From positions 2,296-66,295 of the forward strand of contig PKCZ01000162.1 of assembly GCA_002862405.1 (NCBI GenBank): DNA of 64,000 nucleotides, read 5' to 3'. A program made the position numbers and the translations under genes. Source of the stretch: Pseudomonadota bacterium. GTDB taxonomy: Bacteria > Pseudomonadota > Gammaproteobacteria > Pseudomonadales > Halieaceae. Positions within the stretch are counted from its first letter, which is position 1. Every line of letters begins with the position of its first letter. The notes below the pieces were generated by a model. The model ran no database searches. It had not been told where the DNA came from and saw only the letters and a program-made list of their open reading frames with translations. Shown here piece after piece: positions 9,895 to 64,000 of the stretch.

Positions 9895-11022
9895 ATGTTT
9901 ATCGAGCCGTTCGAAGTCGAAATCTGGATGAACGAATGGGAGACACGCTGCACCTACAACCTTGCTGAAACCTGCGTCGCTAGTATTACGATTAATGAAC
10001 TACTAGCACTATCAGGTCGTGACGAAGCGGACCTATACGAAATCCTGTCGATGAAACTCACCTACGGTGATATCGAGGGATCTGACCGCCTGAGAGCAGC
10101 CATTTCCAAGCTCTACGCCAATACGGCGATTGCGGACATCACCATTACCCACGGCACCATAGCGGCCAACATGCTCGTGCACAAAGGATTGGTAGAGCGC
10201 GGCGACCATGTTGTATCGATCATCCCGACCTATCAGCAACACTACTCTATCCCGCGCAGCATCGAGGCAAATGTCGCCACACTGAGTCTCGAGGCAAGCG
10301 ACGGCTTCCTGCCTGACCTTGACCGATTGCGATCGATGGTAACGCTCGAAACGAAGCTCATCGCGCTCACGAATCCAAACAACCCAACCGGCGCTCTCAT
10401 AGAACGTCCTATGCTGGAGGCTATCGCTGAGGTTGCCGACTCGGTCGGGGCTTATCTACTCTGTGACGAGGTTTACCGAGGGACCGGCCAAGTCGGAGAC
10501 GGGATGGTCCCCTCCATTGTTGATATCTACCATAGAGGCATCAGCACAGCCGGCATGTCGAAAGTATTCTCCCTCGCCGGTCTGCGCGTCGGATGGGTGG
10601 TAGCACCAAATGAGCTGACCGAGAAGATCATGATCCATCGTGATTACGACACCATTTCGGTTGGCATGATTAACGACCATTTTGCGGCCATAGCACTTGA
10701 AAATGCTAGCAAAGTTCTGGCACGAAGCCAGGCAATAACGCGAGAAAATCTCGCGATTTTGGATAGCTGGATTACAAACGAGCCACGCGTCGATTGGGTC
10801 AAACCCCGCGCGGGTACCACTGCCATGCTGAAACTCGACATCCCCATGAGCTCGAGAGAATTCTGTATCGATCTCCTCGAAAAAACGGGCGTCATGCTCA
10901 CCCCTGGCGATGCCTTCGACATGGAGGGTTATGTGAGAATTGGCTATGCAAATGAGCGAGAAATTCTCGAGGCAGGCCTGTCTGAAATGTCTGCCTACCT
11001 GAAGACAAGTTTGCCGGCATAA
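9895..11022 (+). CDS. class I/II PLP-dependent aminotransferase
   Basis: NPNNPTG motif and the PLP-lysine motif SKVFSLAGLRVGW. Confidence 0.85.
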   Translation: MFIEPFEVEIWMNEWETRCTYNLAETCVASITINELLALSGRDEADLYEILSMKLTYGDIEGSDRLRAAISKLYANTAIADITITHGTIAANMLVHKGLVERGDHVVSIIPTYQQHYSIPRSIEANVATLSLEASDGFLPDLDRLRSMVTLETKLIALTNPNNPTGALIERPMLEAIAEVADSVGAYLLCDEVYRGTGQVGDGMVPSIVDIYHRGISTAGMSKVFSLAGLRVGWVVAPNELTEKIMIHRDYDTISVGMINDHFAAIALENASKVLARSQAITRENLAILDSWITNEPRVDWVKPRAGTTAMLKLDIPMSSREFCIDLLEKTGVMLTPGDAFDMEGYVRIGYANEREILEAGLSEMSAYLKTSLPA

Positions 11023-11032
11023 GCCAGTCTTG

Positions 11033-12400
11033 CTATCGCTGCTTAGCGATAAAATCGGAGACTCGCTGGTGTAACTCGCCGTGTAAACGAAACGTTTGTC
11101 TATATACCCAGATACTCCCGATCAGAAAGACAACCGGAAGACCAATCATCAGGGTCCTTAAGCCAAATACCGTCGCCTCGCTTTGGATCTCATTGGGTAC
11201 GTAACCGATAAGCGACAGTCCGACGCCAATAAAAAAGCCAGCGAAGGCACCTGCGAACTTCACCAGCATCGTCTGCACTGAGAAAATAATGCTCTCGCTG
11301 CGTTTCCCCGTCTTGTAATGACCGTAATCAACGACATCGGCGAGCATGACTGTCCCCAAACCATTGGCAATGCCGCCACCGAACTTCAGCAGCGCGCCCG
11401 CTCCCGCCACGAGGACACCACTCTTTGGTGCCACGATGCTCCCCGCCAACAGAACGACACTGCAGGCAAGAGCAAATAAGCTGGCGATGTACCAGGTAAA
11501 ACGTCGTGGTAGGTGTCGGCAGAGCCACGGGAAAAGAAAGATACCCAGCATTTCGGCAATACCGGAGACCAAGGCAAACATGGGAAACAATTCGGGCTTC
11601 CCAATGGCGTAGCTGAAGTAGTAAATCGCAAAGCCACCCACCAGCTGGGTACCAATGTTGAAGGTGAGAACACAACCGATCAGCGAAGCTAGCTGATCGT
11701 TATTTCGCAAGATAGCGATCACATCGCCAAAGGAGAAGCGCTCAATGGTGACCTGGGTAGCAACCCGCTCCTTCACCTGCGAGAAGGTAATCAGCGCAGA
11801 TGCGAGAAAAGCAATAATGATGAGACCAGAGAGGAGGAGAAATCCTCTGCCTTCCTCCCCTCTACCTAGGAAGGCGATGCTCGCCAGACCATAGGTGCCG
11901 ATGATCGTCCAGGCGATGCTAGCGAACAGGCGCGGCCAGACAACCAATCGCTCTCGCTCCTCACGACGAGCAGATAATGCAGGCACTATTGACCAGAAGG
12001 GGATATCCATAATGGTGTAGGTGAGACCCCAAACGATGTAGGTCACGGTGACAAACAAAAGGAGCTGCAAACCTGAAAACAGGTGTGCAGAGAACAGCGC
12101 CAACAAGGCAAGCGAGTTGATCACCGTCCCAAGGACGATCCAGGGCCTGAACTTTCCAAACCGACTGCGCGTGTTATCGACGATCATGCCCATGACCGGA
12201 TCGGATACCGCGTCAATCATGCGGACAACGAGAAACAGCGTTCCCACAAATGCCGCCGGCACGCCGGCCACATCGGTGTAGTAGTACATGAGAAAGAGAT
12301 AAACGATGGAGCAGGCAAAGTCCTTCCCCAGCGCGCCCAGTCCGTAACTGAACTTGGTGCGCGTCGAAATCGAGTCAATCCCATCGATAGCGTCACTCAT
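11033..12400 (-). CDS. glycoside-pentoside-hexuronide (GPH):cation symporter (MelB/LacS-like)
   Basis: 455 aa with about 12 TM helices. The N-terminus (KFSYGLGALGKDFACSIVYLFLMYYYTDV...DPVMGMIVDNTRSRFGKFRPW) is typical of GPH transporters. It lies directly downstream of lacZ. Confidence 0.85.
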   Translation of the reverse strand: MSDAIDGIDSISTRTKFSYGLGALGKDFACSIVYLFLMYYYTDVAGVPAAFVGTLFLVVRMIDAVSDPVMGMIVDNTRSRFGKFRPWIVLGTVINSLALLALFSAHLFSGLQLLLFVTVTYIVWGLTYTIMDIPFWSIVPALSARREERERLVVWPRLFASIAWTIIGTYGLASIAFLGRGEEGRGFLLLSGLIIIAFLASALITFSQVKERVATQVTIERFSFGDVIAILRNNDQLASLIGCVLTFNIGTQLVGGFAIYYFSYAIGKPELFPMFALVSGIAEMLGIFLFPWLCRHLPRRFTWYIASLFALACSVVLLAGSIVAPKSGVLVAGAGALLKFGGGIANGLGTVMLADVVDYGHYKTGKRSESIIFSVQTMLVKFAGAFAGFFIGVGLSLIGYVPNEIQSEATVFGLRTLMIGLPVVFLIGSIWVYRQTFRLHGELHQRVSDFIAKQR

Positions 12401-54747: not shown

Positions 54748-57639
54748 TTGACGCGGATGCACCAAACCATCTTCTTTCACTTGGCTGTCCTTGCAGCACT
54801 TACGGTGGCCTCTCCATATCAGGTCGCAGCGCAAGTTACTGGTGACGAATCAAATGAAACTAGCGCAAGTTCGGGGGGAATCGTCGAGGAAGTCATTGTT
54901 TATGGTATTCAACAAAGCCTCGAGTCTGCGTTGGAGCAAAAGAGGCAACAAAAAAATCTAATCGAGGTCATCAATGCTGAAGACATTGGCAAGATGCCAG
55001 ATGAAAATCTCGCCGAGGTACTCGAGAATATTCCAGGAGTTCAAATCAGTAGAAATGCCGGTATAGGGTCATCGGTAGCCGTCAGGGGCAGTGAAGACAA
55101 CCGCGTAGAAATTAATGGTAGAGGCACGACCCCGGCAGGTGACAGTCGTGGTGGTATGAGCTTTGAAGACCTCCCCGCTGCTCTCGTTCGGTCCCTTAAT
55201 GTTGTAAAAGTTCCCACCGCAGATATGGTCGAGGGCAGCATCGGTGGAACGATAGATGTTAAAACTTATCGCGGACTCAGACTGAAAGAACGACTTGCCG
55301 TTTTCAGAGCTGCCGCTGAATACGCCGAGAATGCCGAAGCGTGGAACCAGAATTTCTCCGCGACCGTTGGTGATAAATTTTCTACGCAACTGGGTGATGT
55401 GGGGGCAATTGTAACTTTCAATCACATAGAGAAGACTGTGAGAGAGGACTCTTTAAGGGTTTCACCGGGAATTCGACAAGCAGCGCAAAGCAACGTTGAC
55501 TTTAATGGTGATGGTATTGGCGATGCTTATTACAAGCCCGGGTTTGGAGACCTTCTCTTCGGTGTTGAGGATAGAGAAAACACTGCAGTTAGCGCTTCTT
55601 TGGAATGGCAGTACAGCAACGATTTGAAGCTTTTTACCGAGGTGTCTTACACAGACTTTTCGAGGCTCAATTTAGGGCAATCTATGTTTATAGGAGCAGC
55701 TGGCGGTGACCAAGAGCTCGATGGTACTGAAGATGCCACGTTCGGCTCGTTGTCAATTGCGGGCGTAAGTATTCCAATGCTCACTTCAGGTATTATTGGC
55801 GGGGGCGTCAGAAACGGCGGTATAGATCTCTCAACCGAGACAGGCGGTCCCAATGATGGATTAAGACTCCGCTCAAACAATCGCGCCGGCTCACGCGACA
55901 CTGAATCCTATCTCGCGGCAATCGGTGGAGAATGGGATAGCGACGATGTAAAAGTGGAATTCGAGGTCAGCGCCGCTGGATCAGACACTCAGGAGGCCTC
56001 GTTCACTACGGTGTTTCAATTCAACGATCCCACAGCGACTAATTTCCACAGTGCTGGCGCTGCGATCAGAGTACCTTTTTACTACGACTATCGAGATGGC
56101 GTCCTTGAGTATGGTCCAACAGGTGATCGCGTCACCACGACACAACTGTTGGACCCAAATTACTACTCGCTATTTATTGCCCGAGATCAGGATAGCTTCT
56201 TTGATAATGAGGAAACTGCAGCGACCGTCGACGTAACCTGGTTCCGCAACAGCGGGATGTGGCAAGAAATCAAGGCAGGTATTCGAATCAGCGACAGATC
56301 CATTAATCGATCTCGCTTGTCACAGGTATCTCGGAACTTTCCTGGCTTTTCCGGGAGTGATTTAGCGCAGTTTCTCGCACCAACACCGGGAGACTTTTTC
56401 GAATTCAGGAGCAATGGTGCCTACCTCGATAATTTTTTGACCGGCAATACCAACGCTATCTTTGGACAGAGAAGACAACTGCGCAGCCTGATTGGCTTGG
56501 ATACTGACGGTGTAACTGACCCACTTCAAGGTTTTGGCGTCGATGAGAACACCTACGCGGGCTACCTGCGTGGTGACTTTGAGCTTGATATTTTGGGTCT
56601 TCCCGCGCAAGGAATTGCAGGGTTACGCGTGGTTAATACCGATCAGAACGCCGCCGGAAATGAAGTGATGATTGATGGCTCACTGCGCGATGTTTCCGAG
56701 TCACAGGACTACACCGAAGTGCTTCCATCACTCAGCCTGGTGATCTCGCCCATGGATGACGTGCAAATTAGATTTGGCGCGGCAAAAATCATGCGCAGAC
56801 CCAGTTTTGGTGATCTGTCTCCGACCGTTAGATACCCACTGAATACAGGTCAGGCAGTGCTCGTAGGTGACCCCACGCTCCAACCGACCACAGCAAAACA
56901 ATTCGATCTCACACTGGAGTACTACCCACGCAAAGGCAGTGTTATGAGTCTTGGTATTTACCACAAAGACCTTGATGGCGTTGTGGGGCGAGAGACTATC
57001 TTCAGTGGTATTTGTAACCCCAGAGCAGTTGACGCGAACGCTGGAAATCCTGATCTCGCGCTACCGGTCTGCACGGTTGCGGGTGAGGCCGGTGTATTGG
57101 TCAATCGAATATCCCCAGTGAATTTACCGGGCGGAGAAATCGACGGCATCGAAGTGGCTTTTCAGCACTACTTTCGAAACTTGCCACAACCTTTCAACGG
57201 CTTAGGCATTATCGCAAATTACGCCTACCAAAACGGGAGCCGCGATCAAACCTTCACGTCACCCGCAGGTTTAAATAGCAATGGCGATCGACAGGATTTA
57301 CCACTGAATTTCGTGCGACTGTCGGAGAACTCTTACAACTTCACAGCGTTTTACGAGAAACCCAAGTGGTCCGCTAGATTACGATATACCTATCGCGATG
57401 TGTTTTTGGTATCCGAATCAACTGATATCAGTAATGGTTTCCCACTCTACTCAGATGATCGAGGTCAGCTAAACGCTTCCCTCAGCTTTAACATCAACCA
57501 GAAGACCGCATTGACGTTCAGCGGAGTCAATCTGCTTAAAGATCGAACCGTGCAGCCCGGCGTTTTTGCTAATGGTCCGATCGCCCGAATGATGGACTCT
57601 GACCGACGGGTAACCATGGGCATTCGGATAAAGCTTTGA
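54748..57639 (+). CDS. TonB-dependent receptor (large, carbohydrate-type)
   Basis: 963 aa with a signal peptide, a plug domain (IEVINAEDIGKMPDENLAEVLENIPGVQ) and a long beta-barrel. TTG 54748 or ATG 54757 could be the start. Confidence 0.9.
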   Translation: MTRMHQTIFFHLAVLAALTVASPYQVAAQVTGDESNETSASSGGIVEEVIVYGIQQSLESALEQKRQQKNLIEVINAEDIGKMPDENLAEVLENIPGVQISRNAGIGSSVAVRGSEDNRVEINGRGTTPAGDSRGGMSFEDLPAALVRSLNVVKVPTADMVEGSIGGTIDVKTYRGLRLKERLAVFRAAAEYAENAEAWNQNFSATVGDKFSTQLGDVGAIVTFNHIEKTVREDSLRVSPGIRQAAQSNVDFNGDGIGDAYYKPGFGDLLFGVEDRENTAVSASLEWQYSNDLKLFTEVSYTDFSRLNLGQSMFIGAAGGDQELDGTEDATFGSLSIAGVSIPMLTSGIIGGGVRNGGIDLSTETGGPNDGLRLRSNNRAGSRDTESYLAAIGGEWDSDDVKVEFEVSAAGSDTQEASFTTVFQFNDPTATNFHSAGAAIRVPFYYDYRDGVLEYGPTGDRVTTTQLLDPNYYSLFIARDQDSFFDNEETAATVDVTWFRNSGMWQEIKAGIRISDRSINRSRLSQVSRNFPGFSGSDLAQFLAPTPGDFFEFRSNGAYLDNFLTGNTNAIFGQRRQLRSLIGLDTDGVTDPLQGFGVDENTYAGYLRGDFELDILGLPAQGIAGLRVVNTDQNAAGNEVMIDGSLRDVSESQDYTEVLPSLSLVISPMDDVQIRFGAAKIMRRPSFGDLSPTVRYPLNTGQAVLVGDPTLQPTTAKQFDLTLEYYPRKGSVMSLGIYHKDLDGVVGRETIFSGICNPRAVDANAGNPDLALPVCTVAGEAGVLVNRISPVNLPGGEIDGIEVAFQHYFRNLPQPFNGLGIIANYAYQNGSRDQTFTSPAGLNSNGDRQDLPLNFVRLSENSYNFTAFYEKPKWSARLRYTYRDVFLVSESTDISNGFPLYSDDRGQLNASLSFNINQKTALTFSGVNLLKDRTVQPGVFANGPIARMMDSDRRVTMGIRIKL

Positions 57640-57699
57640 TAAAAAGCAGCGGCTACAGTTTCGTTGATACTCGACATCGTGCCGTCTGGGGCTGTTGAT

Positions 57700-59382
57700 G
57701 TGGCCCGCGATCATCGCCATGAAAAGCAAGTAACGGGTGCCCGCTCTTATTTGTTAGCGACCTTCATCGGGCTTTTCCTTGCGGGCTCCGCGGTTGCTCA
57801 GACTACGTATTATGTCAGCGAAATGGGAAACGATCGTAATGACGGTTTATCCGAAGGGACGCCATGGCAATCATTATCGAGAGTCAGTCGAGAGCGCCTA
57901 GAACCGGGAGACACTGTGCGATTTCGGTCAGGTGATTTATTTGAAGGGCAGCTAGTTATTTCAAACTCTGGTACCGCAGAGGCACCAATTACTTTCACTC
58001 GGTACGGAGCCGGTGAGAAGCCACTACTCGACGCAGGTAACCCTAGACGCGGCGCCCACGTCGCCACGGTCTTGATCGAGGATCAAGACCAACTCGTCAT
58101 TAGCGAATTAAAAATAAGAAACTTTCGTAAACGTGCGCGCGACGGTATCGACGATGGCGACGCTTTTGGCATTTTAATTAGAAACTCTGGGCGACGTGCC
58201 CTGACTGGATATGAGCTCAGTCGGCTCGAGATTGATGAAGTTTATCCCATCAAGCGCCGTCGGATGTTCAATCGAAATACAGTCAGTGGCATCCGATTCG
58301 AGACGTCTCCCGCACAGACGGTCAAAAGAGCAGTCAACACATCAAACATCTATATCCATGAAAATGTCATTCGAAGGAGCGGGAGGTTCGGTATTGCGAT
58401 TCGCCATCGGCCATCTGACGTCGGGGGCGTCCGGGGGACGCCTCTGGATTTCGATGAAAACGTTCGCATTATTAATAATCTCTGCGAAGACTTAGGTGGT
58501 AGCTGCGTACTGTTGAATGGTGTTAAAGGCGGACTCCTCGAGAGCAACACATTCCTTAGATCGGGTTCTCGTACCAATCAAAATGTCTCCGTCACTAGAG
58601 GAAGCGGCGCATGGTTCTTTCGTTCGCGCGATATCGTTGCCCAGTTCAATGCGGCCATCGGCTCACGCGGTCACAATGACTCAAGTGGTCTTCACGTAGA
58701 CTTCGGCAACAAGAATGTTCTCGTGCAATACAATTTCTTCTACGATAATGAGGGCTACGGCACAGAAATTCTGGGCAAAAATGACAATGTTATCTGGCGA
58801 TATAACGTCAGTGTGGGGGACGGTACTCGCGTTGCCCGAGTGGATCGGCCAGAAGGCATCAAAAGTGAGTTTCCCGGTAAAACCATATTCGTCAGTGACT
58901 TTGCGGCACCCAAACGCTTGCCGTCTTCAAACATCCACATATACAACAACACCTACGTTACCTTCCCTGATTCCGCACCTCAGGTAGAGATTAACGGTGA
59001 AAACGTTGCTCTCCGAAATAATGCCTTTATCGCAACGCCCGATAGTCGGATTGGTAGTCGAGTGCTCGTTGTTTGGAATGACGACAATGGAAGTATTATT
59101 TCCAATAACCTGTTTTCAGGGGCAGTAGCACCAGCGCTCATCGCTATGGATGACGCACCTCATCTCTCAGTACTGGCAATGGATGTCAGCGCAACAAGCC
59201 TAGAGGCGTTCGCTATTCCTTCGGATTTTACGGGGGAGCCTATTGTTCATCCGCCTTTCCCTGCGGCAGGAAAAGGTGTCTTTTCGCACATCACGGAGAT
59301 TCCAAAAAGGGATATTTTTGGCAACCTGATTGCGCAGGATGCACCCGTGATAGGTGCCGGGACAGCCAGTGAAAGCCCTTAA
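57700..59382 (+). CDS. secreted right-handed parallel beta-helix protein (uncharacterised polysaccharide lyase/hydrolase candidate)
   Basis: After the signal peptide, the start TYYVSEMGNDRNDGLSEGTPWQSL is typical of beta-helix (DUF1565/pectate-lyase-fold) proteins. Repeated N-x-hydrophobic coils follow (IHENVIRRSG, IINNLCEDLGG, LESNTFLRSG, VQYNFFYDNEGYG, IYNNTYV, LRNNAFI). The start is uncertain: GTG 57700, or the track's TTG 57664. Confidence 0.7.
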   Translation: MARDHRHEKQVTGARSYLLATFIGLFLAGSAVAQTTYYVSEMGNDRNDGLSEGTPWQSLSRVSRERLEPGDTVRFRSGDLFEGQLVISNSGTAEAPITFTRYGAGEKPLLDAGNPRRGAHVATVLIEDQDQLVISELKIRNFRKRARDGIDDGDAFGILIRNSGRRALTGYELSRLEIDEVYPIKRRRMFNRNTVSGIRFETSPAQTVKRAVNTSNIYIHENVIRRSGRFGIAIRHRPSDVGGVRGTPLDFDENVRIINNLCEDLGGSCVLLNGVKGGLLESNTFLRSGSRTNQNVSVTRGSGAWFFRSRDIVAQFNAAIGSRGHNDSSGLHVDFGNKNVLVQYNFFYDNEGYGTEILGKNDNVIWRYNVSVGDGTRVARVDRPEGIKSEFPGKTIFVSDFAAPKRLPSSNIHIYNNTYVTFPDSAPQVEINGENVALRNNAFIATPDSRIGSRVLVVWNDDNGSIISNNLFSGAVAPALIAMDDAPHLSVLAMDVSATSLEAFAIPSDFTGEPIVHPPFPAAGKGVFSHITEIPKRDIFGNLIAQDAPVIGAGTASESP

Positions 59383-60931
59383 ATCAACCAACATCAATTG
59401 GTTGTTTGTTGCAGTTATCTTGTGGCTTCAAGCGCCTGCTCTCGCATCTCAAAACACCTCACCAAATTTCATTCTCGTCCTGACCGACGACCAGGGCTGG
59501 AGTTCAATGTCCTCGCCAATGGATAAAGACGCCGAAGAAAGTCAAAGCGACTTCCATTACACGCCATCGCTCGACCTGATAAGCGCCTCCGGAGTGCGTT
59601 TTTCGAATGCGTATGCTGCGGCTCCTGTTTGCTCTCCTACGCGTTACAGCATCCAATTTGGAAAATCTCCTGCACGTCTTCGCCACACTAGAGTTCGAGG
59701 TCCAAACTGGGTTAATCACGACCAGCTGGCGATTCCTCAATTATTAAAGCTCGCCAATCCAAATTATCGCTCTGCCCATTTCGGCAAGTGGCACATTGAC
59801 GCCGAACCCGCTCAACTGGGATACGACGTGAGTGATGGAAAGACGGGCAATAAAGAAGGTGGATACGTTGAGGATCAAAAGGAGCAGTGGCGAGGTTATG
59901 AAAAAGACGATCCAAAGCGCATTGAAGCAATCACAGAGCGTGCAGTCGACTTCATAAAGGATAGTCTTCGGAGAGAGCAGCCCTTTTTTGTCCAGGTGTC
60001 GCATTATGCACTTCACTCGAATCTCGAATACAGCGGCCGCTCATTTAGATACTTTGAAGAAAAGAAGCCCGGCGACCTCCACAGTAATATCGCTTATGCG
60101 TCTATGCTGCTAGACATGGACACGGCAATTGGAACGTTGTTTGAGACCTACAGAGAGCTTGGGCTCGAAAACAACACCTACTTCATCGTCACCTCGGATA
60201 ACGGCGGGATGCCAGTATTGCCTCAGAAACTCAACCAAGGAAGACCCTATGAGAAAGGTATGAACTACCCGATGTTACGAGGAAAGTGGGACCTAATGGA
60301 AGGAGGGATTCGTGTACCATTTATGGTCGTGGGTCCATCAATCAGCCCTAACTCACAGTCTAGTGAACCCATCATTAGTTATGACTTGCTTCCGACATTT
60401 GCCGATTTGACGGGTGCAACCGAGCACCTGAGCCATGATACCGACGGTGTGAGCCTCCGCCCTTTACTAACAACACCCAACGACCAACTAGAGCGTCCAC
60501 AACATGGCCTGGTATTTCACTTCCCTCACTACAATGCCGTTGGATTGAACGAACCCCACTCTGCGATTCGGGTCAACTCACTGAAACTAGTCCGCTTTCA
60601 TACCTCCGCGCGATCATTACTGTTTGATCTAGCGACAGACCCTTACGAGCGCATCGACATAGCCGGTAACAATCCAGAATGCTCTCAAGCTTTAGAGCGA
60701 TTGCTAAATGACTACTTACAGAAAGTAAACGCCGAAACACCCGAAGAGAGCGTGAGTTGGGAAAAACCAGGAAAAAATGGGGCCGTACACACAAAGTTTC
60801 TGTCTCGCTATCCAGAAAATAATGGCGTCACGAAAATACTGAAATGCGAACATTTTGCCTCGCGAAAGACTGTGGGTACTCCTTGGTCCCAGAAAGCGCA
60901 CTCACCAACAACACTAGGAGCAACATTGTGA
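59369..60931 (+). CDS. formylglycine-dependent sulfatase, secreted
   Basis: CSPTRYSIQFG signature and TDDQGW. The signal peptide begins at GTG 59369, which overlaps the upstream gene by 14 nt. Confidence 0.85.
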   Translation: MKALKSTNINWLFVAVILWLQAPALASQNTSPNFILVLTDDQGWSSMSSPMDKDAEESQSDFHYTPSLDLISASGVRFSNAYAAAPVCSPTRYSIQFGKSPARLRHTRVRGPNWVNHDQLAIPQLLKLANPNYRSAHFGKWHIDAEPAQLGYDVSDGKTGNKEGGYVEDQKEQWRGYEKDDPKRIEAITERAVDFIKDSLRREQPFFVQVSHYALHSNLEYSGRSFRYFEEKKPGDLHSNIAYASMLLDMDTAIGTLFETYRELGLENNTYFIVTSDNGGMPVLPQKLNQGRPYEKGMNYPMLRGKWDLMEGGIRVPFMVVGPSISPNSQSSEPIISYDLLPTFADLTGATEHLSHDTDGVSLRPLLTTPNDQLERPQHGLVFHFPHYNAVGLNEPHSAIRVNSLKLVRFHTSARSLLFDLATDPYERIDIAGNNPECSQALERLLNDYLQKVNAETPEESVSWEKPGKNGAVHTKFLSRYPENNGVTKILKCEHFASRKTVGTPWSQKAHSPTTLGATL

Positions 60932-62598
60932 CCAGAGCTAAAAGAATATCCACTGTGTCAGTTTTTATAACCGTGCTAGCAGGGTGGCTCCTCACCGGCT
61001 GTGATGACGTTGAGTCGACTACAAAACTACCCGCCGAACCCCAAAGTCACGTTACTGCCGCCTCCGATATCAACGTCATTTACATCCTGACTGACGATCA
61101 ACGATTTGATGAGCTGGGATTCATGAATCCGGTTATCGATACACCGAATATCGACAGACTGGCTCAAGAGGGAGTCCACTTCAAAAACGCCTTTGTTACG
61201 ACGGCCCTGTGCTCTCCCAGCCGAGCCACCATTTTGACCGGCCAATACATGCACAATCATGGTGTGGTCGATAACAATGCACCGCCAAATCCTGAGAGCG
61301 TTTTCTTTCCCCAGTACCTACAAAAAGGAGGATACGACACAGCCTTCATCGGAAAATGGCATATGGGTGAAGCTGCCTCAGCAACTCGCAACCTTGATGA
61401 TCCACAACCAGGGTTCGACCATTGGGTGAGTTTTGCGGGACAGGGTCATTACTATCCCACTAAATTGCGTAACGGTGAGATGAATAAACTCAACGTCAAC
61501 GGTGAGCACGTCTTTCAAAAAGGCTACATAACAGATGAGCTGACTGACTATGCGGTCGATTATTTGTCCCAGCGCACGTCTGAGCGGCCATTTTTCCTTT
61601 ATTTATCGCACAAAGCAGTACATGCGAACTTCTCCCCCGCCGCGCGCCATGCCACTCAATATTCCGATCGAAAAATTCCGGTGCCCGCAAGTCAAGCAGA
61701 TACGGCCGAGAACTACGCGGGGAAACCAATGTGGGTAAAAAATCAGCGTAATAGCTGGCATGGTGTGGATTTCCCTTACCACAGTTCACTCGATGTCCAA
61801 GCGTACAAAATGGAGTACCACAGAGCTATGTCGGCAGTTGATGACAGTGTGGGTCGCCTCTTAGCTTGGCTATCTGAAAATGGATATGCAGGGAATACGA
61901 TTGTCATGCTGATGGGGGATAACGGATTCTTGTTCGGAGAGCATGGGCTAATCGACAAAAGAAATGCATACGAGGAATCGATGCGGGTGCCCTTAATTGC
62001 CTGGGGGCCAGGCGTCATTGAGCAAGGTCTTTCAGTGTCCGAAATGATCGCAAACTTGGATATCGCTCCTACAGTTATGGAAATAGCGGGATTAACCCCA
62101 CCAGCGCAATTCGAAGGTCAGAGTTTCCTCTCGCTGGCAAAGGGTCTCGAGATTGATGAATGGAGGGACGAGCTACTCTACGAGTACTACTGGGAGTTTA
62201 ACTTTCCAAGCACGCCCACAACCTTCGCGCTTCGCACTGACGCCTTTAAGCTCATTCAATATCACGGAGTTTGGGATACGGAGGAACTTTATGACTTGCG
62301 ATCAGATCCCAAAGAAATGAATAACCTCATTAATAATCCCAAGTATCTGTCTATCGTGGCGAGCATGCGTCGGCAGCTCTTCAACAGACTGAGTAACAAC
62401 AAGGGAGAGCATGTAGTTCCCTACACTGAAAAATTTAGCTCCGGCGCTGTTTTTCGGGAGAGAGATCGATCAACAGCCGCTGAATTTCCCGAACACTGGC
62501 TAAAAAAAGACTCTGATCAAGGCTTAGAAGACTTCTTTGTTCCTGACTTACGCAGAGCAAACTCAGCAAAGGATCAGGTCGACGCAGACCTGCGCTGA
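60928..62598 (+). CDS. formylglycine-dependent sulfatase, lipoprotein
   Basis: CSPSRATILTG signature and TDDQRFDE, with lipobox LTGC. GTG 60928 is preceded by AGGAG and overlaps the upstream stop as GTGA. Confidence 0.9.
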   Translation: MTRAKRISTVSVFITVLAGWLLTGCDDVESTTKLPAEPQSHVTAASDINVIYILTDDQRFDELGFMNPVIDTPNIDRLAQEGVHFKNAFVTTALCSPSRATILTGQYMHNHGVVDNNAPPNPESVFFPQYLQKGGYDTAFIGKWHMGEAASATRNLDDPQPGFDHWVSFAGQGHYYPTKLRNGEMNKLNVNGEHVFQKGYITDELTDYAVDYLSQRTSERPFFLYLSHKAVHANFSPAARHATQYSDRKIPVPASQADTAENYAGKPMWVKNQRNSWHGVDFPYHSSLDVQAYKMEYHRAMSAVDDSVGRLLAWLSENGYAGNTIVMLMGDNGFLFGEHGLIDKRNAYEESMRVPLIAWGPGVIEQGLSVSEMIANLDIAPTVMEIAGLTPPAQFEGQSFLSLAKGLEIDEWRDELLYEYYWEFNFPSTPTTFALRTDAFKLIQYHGVWDTEELYDLRSDPKEMNNLINNPKYLSIVASMRRQLFNRLSNNKGEHVVPYTEKFSSGAVFRERDRSTAAEFPEHWLKKDSDQGLEDFFVPDLRRANSAKDQVDADLR

Positions 62599-62656: not shown

Positions 62657-63547
62657 TCACGGTACCTCGCTGCCCAGCGCAGCTTCGTAAAGAAAGAACC
62701 AGTCCTGTCGGTCGAGCTGAACGGTTTCAGCTGCTGAGATTGCCGAGATTCGATCGAGGTTGTTGGTGCCTAGTACTGGTGTGATCCTCGCCGGATGAGC
62801 TAATAAAAATGCTGTTGCTACCGCGGCCCGATCAACGCCGGATCGTGTGGCAATGCTATCCAAGCGATGCGTCAACTCATTTGAGGCGGTCATCAGGTCG
62901 CCTCCGCCTAAGGGAGACCACGCCATGACGACGTGTCCGTGCTGCTGATGGAAAGCCAAGTCACCATTCGTGAATGGCGCTATTTGTTTAAGGCTCAATT
63001 CGATCTGATTGGTCACGAGCGGATGACGCATGGCCGACTGGAGTAAATTCCAGTCCCAGGGTCTGAAGTTAGACGCTCCCACCGCGCGGACCTTTCCCGC
63101 ATCGACTAGCGCATCCAGCGCCGCACCTGTCTCATGATGGTCCATGAGCGGATCTGGCCGATGGACAAGAAGCACATCAATCTCGTTAATACCCATTTCT
63201 GCTAGCGAGGCTTCAACACAGGCATTAATGTGCGCTGCCGTCGTGTTGTAGTGTTTAACACGCGTTCCGGAGTGACGGCCTGCATCGATGACAATGTCGC
63301 ACTTGGAAACAATTTCCATCCGCTGGCGCAGTGAAGGGTTCGCCATCATTGCCGCTCCCATCACAGCTTCGGCGGTGTAGCCACCGTAAATATCCGCCTG
63401 ATCGAATGTCGTGATGCCCTGATCGAGCGCTGCATTAATTTTGGCATCGACGTGCTTCACTGACGTATCGCTGTCGTCTGCGAGCCGCCACATGCCATAA
63501 ACAAGCCGGCTAAACGACAGCCCCTGCGCTAATTCGATGCGTTCCAT
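62657..63547 (-). CDS. aldo/keto reductase (YdhF-like)
   Basis: FDQADIYGG motif and an AKR-typical length. ATG 63547 is preceded by GAGGGAAG. Confidence 0.85.
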   Translation of the reverse strand: MERIELAQGLSFSRLVYGMWRLADDSDTSVKHVDAKINAALDQGITTFDQADIYGGYTAEAVMGAAMMANPSLRQRMEIVSKCDIVIDAGRHSGTRVKHYNTTAAHINACVEASLAEMGINEIDVLLVHRPDPLMDHHETGAALDALVDAGKVRAVGASNFRPWDWNLLQSAMRHPLVTNQIELSLKQIAPFTNGDLAFHQQHGHVVMAWSPLGGGDLMTASNELTHRLDSIATRSGVDRAAVATAFLLAHPARITPVLGTNNLDRISAISAAETVQLDRQDWFFLYEAALGSEVP

Positions 63548-63677
63548 TGGTCTTCCCTCATCTCGAGGCTTTATTGTACGGGTCAAAACTCATGCCAGCG
63601 AACTACATAATTCAACGCCGCTCTTGACAGTCACGGGCGTTCTTGGCGATAACAGTAGTGATTTCAGAGGATCGCCC

Positions 63678-64000
63678 ATGATTGAGTTTTTAAATCCAGA
63701 CGCTGACGTTGGCATTGAAAATATGCCGTACGATTTATCCGTAAAGGTCGACGGTGGGAGCGCCACAACCATTGGTTTGCTGGCCAACGGATTTCCCGAC
63801 TCCGTGCCCTTCCTTGATGAGGTTGGGAAAGCGATTGGTCGGCTTCGACCGGGGATCAACCTCAAGGCCTATAACAAAGGAAATGCCACCATCGCTGCGC
63901 CCGAGAAACTACTCGGCGAGATTGGTGGTGATTGCGTGGGTGTCATCGCCGCCTACGGGCACTGAGGCTCCTGCACTACCGGCACCGTGCGTGACGGCAT
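63678..64000 (+). CDS. UGSC-family (seleno)protein, 3'-truncated by the window, with in-frame TGA (Sec) at 63963-63965
   Basis: ATG 63678 is preceded by AGGA. The frame reads ...VIAAYGH-TGA-GSCTTGTVRDG and stays open to the window end. U-G-S-C is the motif that names the family. Confidence 0.6.

Follow-up and report, generated by a model that had tools for sequence, protein, structure and literature searches.

The downstream end of the DNA stretch analysed here (the window, 64,000 nucleotides in its whole length) carries an unannotated member of the already known UGSC selenoprotein family. The TGA at positions 63963-63965 almost certainly is a selenocysteine (Sec) codon within a UGSC-family protein of 178 residues. 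We are confident of a joint account in which a single UGSC selenoprotein gene has its UGA recoded to Sec with the aid of a SECIS element at 63979-63997 and encodes a redox protein which works with a partner. Read-through as selenocysteine had been proposed in a preliminary description of this DNA. The proposal is now supported by a frame which extends for 82 codons, by a TGA in 86 of 86 loci, by homologues with Cys, by a Pfam match and by a frozen block of RNA. The region would comprise the 5' 60% of one selenoprotein gene of an uncultured gammaproteobacterium of the Halieaceae (OM60/NOR5, Luminiphilus-like).

The open reading frame on the + strand starts with ATG at 63678 and reaches the TGA at 63963-63965. 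GGC TCC TGC (G-S-C) follow in frame, and no further stop occurs in the last 35 nt of the window. Read directly from the window, the sequence across the TGA is ...GDCVGVIAAYGH*GSCTTGTVRDG, i.e., AYGH*GSCTTGTVRDG around the TGA. In all these points the preliminary description was accurate. A Shine-Dalgarno-like AGAGGA (63666-63671, + strand) is read 6 nt upstream of the ATG; a sigma-70-like promoter was not found in 63500-63720. The start at 63678 is favoured over a longer mechanical ORF from 63537 by public gene calls and by the N-termini of homologues. The window holds the first 107 codons of the gene (63678-64000, + strand), as indicated by the ORF, its translation, the contig extension and the match to Pfam UGSC. 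Six public contigs (L001-L006), from single-cell genomes and from metagenome assemblies of TARA/ENA, match window positions 63600-64000 (401 nt) with 100% identity. The continuation past 64000, which the preliminary description could not see, is the same in all six: 82 codons beyond the TGA remain in frame, 71 of them past the window end, and are closed by TAA. The full gene has 537 nt (178 aa plus stop) and would end at window-equivalent position 64214. The TGA is codon 96 of the read-through product.

The 178-residue product, searched with C in place of U, matches Pfam UGSC (PF24696) with 133.1 bits against a cutoff of 25 and covers profile positions 23-171 of 172. The 107 aa contained in the window suffice for 57.7 bits against this profile, and they also match NCBIfam NF041046. 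The full product, again with U replaced by C, matches NF041046, named "UGSC family (seleno)protein", with 104.8 bits (E = 3.9e-30, positions 2-146 of 147) and does not reach the curated equivalog cutoff of 125 bits. Thus, the Halieaceae/Pseudomonadales clade is somewhat divergent from the sequences on which the NCBIfam model was built. Taking the end-to-end Pfam match and the score below the NCBIfam cutoff together, the protein is a full-length Pfam UGSC member which the equivalog alone would leave unnamed. The family name given in the preliminary description is borne out by both collections.

A search of 5.8 billion proteins yielded 331 matches. Full-length homologues (175-186 aa, 30-57% identity) possess a Cys exactly in the column of the TGA (AYGH-C-GSCTS). 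Dozens of database entries of about 97 aa terminate exactly at AYGH. The preliminary description had pointed to the aligned position in homologues as a check of its reading; the Cys is present there (AYGH-C-GSCT), side by side with the short entries ending at AYGH. Across our alignments of homologues (A2 and A4) the pattern is AYGH-[U/C]-GSCT, i.e., the U/C-G-S-C motif of the family. The corresponding U-G-S-C, a redox motif of the UxxC type, is located at 63963-63974 (+ strand). All 81 Sec-form genes encode its G97, S98 and C99, and the Cys forms do so nearly without exception.

Some members of alignment A2 deviate from this pattern. P0001 has a Trp in the Sec column; presumably the gene prediction translated TGA as Trp in this case. 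In P0009, with ...AACAT-EALTTGTVRDG, the motif is missing; this points to a frameshift or an erroneous assembly close to the TGA. P0054, P0065, P0083, P0085, P0097 and P0108 form a more distant Cys-form group characterised by D-C-G-S-C and PHPMGD. The proteins of this group carry a C-terminal extension of about 30 residues which ends with LYCP[IL] and thus contains another conserved Cys. P0083 belongs to the haloarchaeon Natronorubrum sp. FCH18a and is named UGSC family (seleno)protein by NCBI.

A genome scan (alignment A3) used one genome per GTDB species, and the best 80 of 347 relatives were kept. With this selection the codon is TGA in 86 of 86 loci from three phyla, at protein identities of 48-100%. 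The loci, again among the best 80 of 347 relatives, come from Halieaceae, other Pseudomonadales, Acidimicrobiia/Actinomycetota and Acidobacteriota (two MAGs), and they were obtained from single-cell genomes, MAGs, isolates and complete genomes. The closest relatives (99%) are Halieaceae SAGs and MAGs (AG-895-A22, AG-901-J11); further ones are Luminiphilus and the isolates HTCC2080 and HTCC2143.

Residues encoded behind the TGA, e.g., LPHPVAGTG, are kept as amino acids while using 2-6 codons each. Therefore, the downstream half of the gene is translated and is under purifying selection. One short block is conserved differently. In a codon alignment of 81 distinct Sec-form genes (pairwise protein identity down to 48%) we counted the columns which are at least 85% conserved and degenerate (n = 75). 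Codons 101-106 (ACC GGC ACC GTG CGT GAC) use one codon each in all 81 genes, whereas the other 69 conserved columns use 2-6 codons with entropies of 0.38-2.5 bits (median 1.73). The chance that six single-codon columns among 75 are consecutive is P = 3.5e-7. Arg105 is always encoded by CGT, yet Arg143 is encoded by all six Arg codons. When the U of UGA is numbered 1, positions 17-35, i.e., 19 nt including the synonymous sites, are the same in all of 80 distinct sequences; at position 16 one sequence deviates. Four Cys-form genes encode [ST]-[GS]-[TA]-[VT]-R-[DN] at the same place, and in none of the four is the block kept: all have CGC instead of CGT, and three also differ elsewhere in the block (including ACG, GAT and TCC).

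RNAalifold, supplied with 69 distinct segments of 57 nt, gave a consensus hairpin which coincides with the 19 invariant nucleotides. This is the predicted SECIS core (CCGGCAC-CGUGC-GUGACGG, 63979-63997, + strand), in which 17 pairs with 35, 18 with 34, 19 with 33, 21 with 31, 22 with 30 and 23 with 29, interrupted by a G20/A32 mismatch. The apical loop CGUGC (C24-G25-U26-G27-C28; 63986-63990, + strand) has 5 nt with a G in second place, then a U, and is positioned 20 nt after the UGA. The hairpin accounts for six of the six frozen third positions: C18, C21, U30 and C33 are paired, and C24 and G27 reside in the loop. The four paired ones each have a partner base that the amino-acid sequence dictates. 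None of the 12 paired bases varies, so covariation is absent, and the pairing is therefore derived from the pattern of frozen sites and is not proven.

The current model of bacterial SECIS elements specifies a loop of 3-9 nt, an upper stem of 4-16 bp and G[G|U] in the first two loop positions, furthermore a spacing of 16-37 nt from the UGA and a minimum free energy of -7.5 kcal/mol or lower (PMC13188914 Fig. 2). The geometry of the hairpin agrees with it: a 5-nt loop, six pairs plus one 1x1 mismatch, G25-U26 and a spacing of 20 nt. The core hairpin alone, at -6.0 kcal/mol, is weaker than the -7.5 of the model. For the 57-nt segments folded with the core enforced the median is -12 kcal/mol; of the 69 segments, 64 are at -7.5 or lower, with flanking pairs that vary. 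RNAalifold detected no conserved lower stem in the 69 segments. Single-sequence folding of the 65 nt and the 121 nt after the TGA is no better than that of shuffled sequences (z = -0.09 and -0.23); thus, thermodynamics alone is uninformative here. Rfam contains no bacterial SECIS family, and searches of the window with its gathering thresholds and of the locus with E values up to 10 gave no match.

Two other pairings were considered as the main element and rejected. The preliminary description had pointed to a short hairpin directly after the TGA (UGCAC 63972-63976/GUGCG 63987-63991). It exists as described, with four Watson-Crick pairs, one U-G pair and -4.3 kcal/mol, but it is not the conserved one: this pairing (10-14/25-29) does not account for four of the frozen synonymous sites and is present in 4 of 69 free minimum-energy folds, and the consensus is the hairpin at 63979-63997. 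A third pairing, 23-26/32-35, explains just four of the six frozen sites. Both use the same nucleotides as the hairpin 17-35 and are energetically similar to it. The expectation that the window cuts off the SECIS element was wrong, as the core at 63979-63997 lies wholly inside.

How does this element compare with known ones? The SECIS loop of fdhF contains G23 and U24. As in the E. coli fdhF type and the bSECISearch consensus, the hairpin considered here is part of the coding region just after the UGA, and its spacing of 20 nt is within 16-37. It further shares the small apical loop with a G followed by a U (here G25 and U26) and a non-Watson-Crick break in the upper stem. In contrast to these elements, the break is a 1x1 G/A mismatch and not a bulged U, and the core has just 6 bp and -6.0 kcal/mol and is devoid of a conserved lower stem. 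The most conspicuous difference concerns conservation: none of the 19 nt differs between Pseudomonadota, Actinomycetota and Acidobacteriota, whereas the bSECIS elements of one gene, as a review states, usually do not resemble those of another (PMC13188914). Mechanistically, the UGA at codon 96 would be recoded to Sec, as the comparative data suggest. The hairpin, which starts 13 nt downstream of the UGA (63979-63997, loop CGUGC), would act as bacterial SECIS and bring SelB-GTP-Sec-tRNASec to a ribosome stalled at the UGA, which would then translate 82 more codons.

Public annotation has taken the TGA for a stop. The truncated product of 95 residues is indexed in 491 blocks of a public assembly collection. 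In the six identical contigs the gene is split into a 95-aa ORF and, in four of six, an additional 75-aa ORF, both of which match Pfam UGSC. The warning in the preliminary description that a standard gene caller would truncate this protein is confirmed by these calls of 95 and 75 aa. One may take the calls at face value, i.e., the TGA as a genuine stop which separates two small proteins; the many database entries which end at AYGH and the use of TGA as the usual stop codon in the window agree with this. We nevertheless regard two proteins as exceedingly improbable. Both pieces are in the same frame throughout the 86 loci, their halves together make up one Pfam domain and one predicted fold, and the Cys-form homologues are contiguous single proteins. 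Moreover, the 75-aa call begins at a GTG (window-equivalent 63987-63989) which is codon V104 of the continuous frame. A start at V104 in the invariant RNA block leaves G97-T103, seven codons with invariant amino acids, outside of both ORFs. As this GTG is V104 within the predicted SECIS loop, the 75-aa ORF is an artefact of gene splitting. A TGA differs from TGC by a single base, hence one may think of a pseudogene in which a nonsense mutation turned TGC into TGA, or of a mistake in sequencing or assembly. The chance of this is negligible: an identical 95-aa product is present in 491 blocks of the public collection, and 86 independent TGA loci together with purifying selection downstream effectively refute it.

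A more subtle alternative accepts the read-through, yet has the UGA decoded as another amino acid (Trp, Cys by near-cognate decoding, or by a variant code), with the RNA block as a generic stimulator of read-through. Searches with E. coli SelA, SelB and SelD by tblastn gave no matches in the window or in all loci examined (971 kb), which for this organism comprised the window plus about 10 kb, and tRNA genes are absent from the 64-kb window. The short hairpin is not backed by covariation, and the homologue P0001 is translated in the database with a W at this position. All this would be compatible with decoding other than by Sec. Against it, the column is Cys in homologues, the motif is the eponymous UGSC Sec motif of a published selenoprotein family, and loop sequence and spacing fit the SelB-type SECIS model. 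Of the 38 long ORFs in the window, 21, among them TonB-dependent receptor and sulfatase genes, end with TGA, and no other ordinary stop is as common there; a general reassignment of TGA is thereby excluded. A heuristic scan of the 64-kb window for further genes with an in-frame TGA produced nothing convincing. Related Halieaceae are users of Sec, and a related locus carries a tRNA-Sec. HTCC2080, HIMB55 and HTCC2143 are listed as Sec-utilizing, a trait defined by SelD/SelA/SelB (PMC5029168 Table S2). HTCC2080 and HIMB55 are Halieaceae, and HTCC2080 has the same TGA-containing gene (L028). In a Pseudomonadales MAG (OY843767.1) a tRNA-Sec with the anticodon tca is located 4.3 kb downstream of the UGSC operon (L043:9797-9890). 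ARAGORN and Rfam RF01852 (65.3 bits, cutoff 47) both detect it, and it is the sole tRNA-Sec in the loci examined. These Sec-using relatives and the tRNA-Sec of L043 make Sec decoding in this lineage plausible, and decoding of the UGA as anything other than Sec is, in our view, very unlikely.

What kind of protein does the Sec codon belong to? P0006, a Cys homologue of equal length, was modelled with AlphaFold2 on the basis of 33 aligned sequences. The model (pLDDT 93) has five beta-alpha units and consists of one domain which spans both halves of the protein. U/C96-G-S-C99 is positioned between a strand (88-94) and a helix (97-112), i.e., in the model of P0006 the motif is found at the N-terminus of a helix after a beta-strand, where xCxxC-type motifs are expected. 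Foldseek searches of the PDB returned generic flavodoxin-like three-layer folds with TM below 0.5, also TIR, lumazine synthase and GTPase; a thioredoxin fold is absent from the top 50 PDB matches. Sequence and profile searches of the PDB gave nothing significant, i.e., no solved relative, and Pfam searches at E up to 10 with 33 UGSC members revealed no recurrent second family. The GOS survey had suggested a thioredoxin-like fold for UGSC (PMC2398784). In view of the flavodoxin-like AlphaFold2 model and the missing thioredoxin match, this suggestion of 2008 is not supported. UGSC resembles the UxxC/CxxC oxidoreductases (thioredoxin-like, peroxiredoxin-like, PrdB with UxxC) in having the Sec/Cys pair at the N-terminus of a helix directly after a beta-strand. 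It is unlike them in its overall fold, which according to the model is not thioredoxin-like, and in having no sequence or profile similarity to a solved structure or another Pfam family. The protein would then be a single flavodoxin-like alpha/beta domain with Sec96-Gly-Ser-Cys99 at a helix N-terminus. The expected chemistry would be cycling between selenolate/thiol and selenenylsulfide, as in UxxC thiol oxidoreductases.

Past the window end the UGSC gene is followed by a gene of about 355 aa, in contig L002 at 10530-11597 (window-equivalent 64207-65274); in the strain of the window, its start and the UGSC stop share 8 nt. In 86 of 86 Sec loci (relatives being the best 80 of 347) and in four of four Cys loci it comes directly after UGSC, either overlapping it or at a distance of at most 160 nt. 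With identities of 56-100% the protein is more conserved than UGSC itself; 101 positions are at least 97% invariant. Near-invariant are Cys75, Cys121, Cys174 and Cys348 as well as His167 and His188. At least 7988 homologues exist in databases, all labelled hypothetical. Searches against Pfam, NCBIfam and PDB sequences gave no match, and Pfam at E up to 10 with 26 members gave no recurrent family. The AlphaFold2 model of the partner is mediocre (pLDDT 72); an assignment as class I fumarate hydratase/Toblerone fold was dropped, as a Foldseek TM of about 0.25 on such a model is too weak. In the GOS survey UGSC was found fused to a conserved domain of unknown function (Unknown_1, Figure S1A), which may be the partner of about 355 aa (PMC2398784).

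The position of the motif, the gene adjacency and the GOS fusion lead us to infer that UGSC is the redox-active subunit or a dedicated reductant of the protein of about 355 aa. UGSC would most likely act with the product of this following gene and its four near-invariant Cys residues. More far-reaching, and held with slightly less than even confidence, is the proposal that the two genes, the partner being translationally coupled, encode an unrecognised two-component (seleno)enzyme which is very abundant in marine heterotrophic bacteria. If it is true, the frozen SECIS of 19 of 19 nt would imply an unusually strict recognition by SelB across phyla or a repeated lateral transfer of the module.

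On the other side of UGSC, a divergently transcribed aldo-keto reductase gene (Pfam Aldo_ket_red, 62657-63547, - strand) lies 130 nt upstream of the start. It is adjacent only in the closest 20 loci and is therefore probably not part of the UGSC module. Upstream of the aldo-keto reductase, synteny differs between strains (L001/L008 1-8900 compared with L002-L006 1-8900; window about 54757-62598). The window type has genes for a TonB-dependent receptor, a beta-helix protein and two sulfatases at this place, whereas SAG AG-901-J11 has GST, FAD monooxygenase, FAA hydrolase, glyoxalase, one sulfatase and enoyl-CoA hydratase.

The UGSC family has been known for some time. The earliest mention which we found dates from 2007, when a paper reported UGSC from Hyphomonas neptunium and a Pacific metagenome as a selenoprotein without a known function (PMC1976440). 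In the GOS survey of Zhang and Gladyshev in 2008 it was among the five most abundant selenoprotein families, with 255 Sec against 21 Cys forms (PMC2398784). In 2016 it was reported from 26 sequenced organisms (PMC5029168), and a review of 2026 still lists it as uncharacterised (PMC13188914). The statement in the preliminary description that the family was first noticed in surveys of marine metagenomes is right as to its prominence in the GOS data of 2008 (PMC2398784), but the genome and metagenome paper of 2007 is earlier (PMC1976440). That the family has no known function was stated correctly, as the review of 2026 attests (PMC13188914).

The gene described here shares with the published family the U-G-S-C motif in the same alignment column, the length class of about 175-185 aa, the end-to-end Pfam match, the occurrence in marine and aquatic bacteria and the large excess of Sec over Cys forms. 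It departs from the published picture in its NCBIfam score (104.8 against a cutoff of 125) and in a flavodoxin-like AlphaFold2 model against the thioredoxin-like fold that had been guessed. The observations added here are incremental: an invariant 19-nt SECIS core which spans phyla, an obligate downstream partner gene, and a model which is flavodoxin-like rather than thioredoxin-like.

These findings on the UGSC gene do not overturn current understanding. They reveal that the gene is systematically mis-annotated, i.e., it is split into two ORFs or ended at the Sec codon, and correct annotation matters for selenoproteome counts in the abundant coastal OM60/NOR5 bacteria. Further, the partner gene, the flavodoxin-like model and the invariant SECIS core provide concrete handles for experiments on a family which is frequent in the sea.
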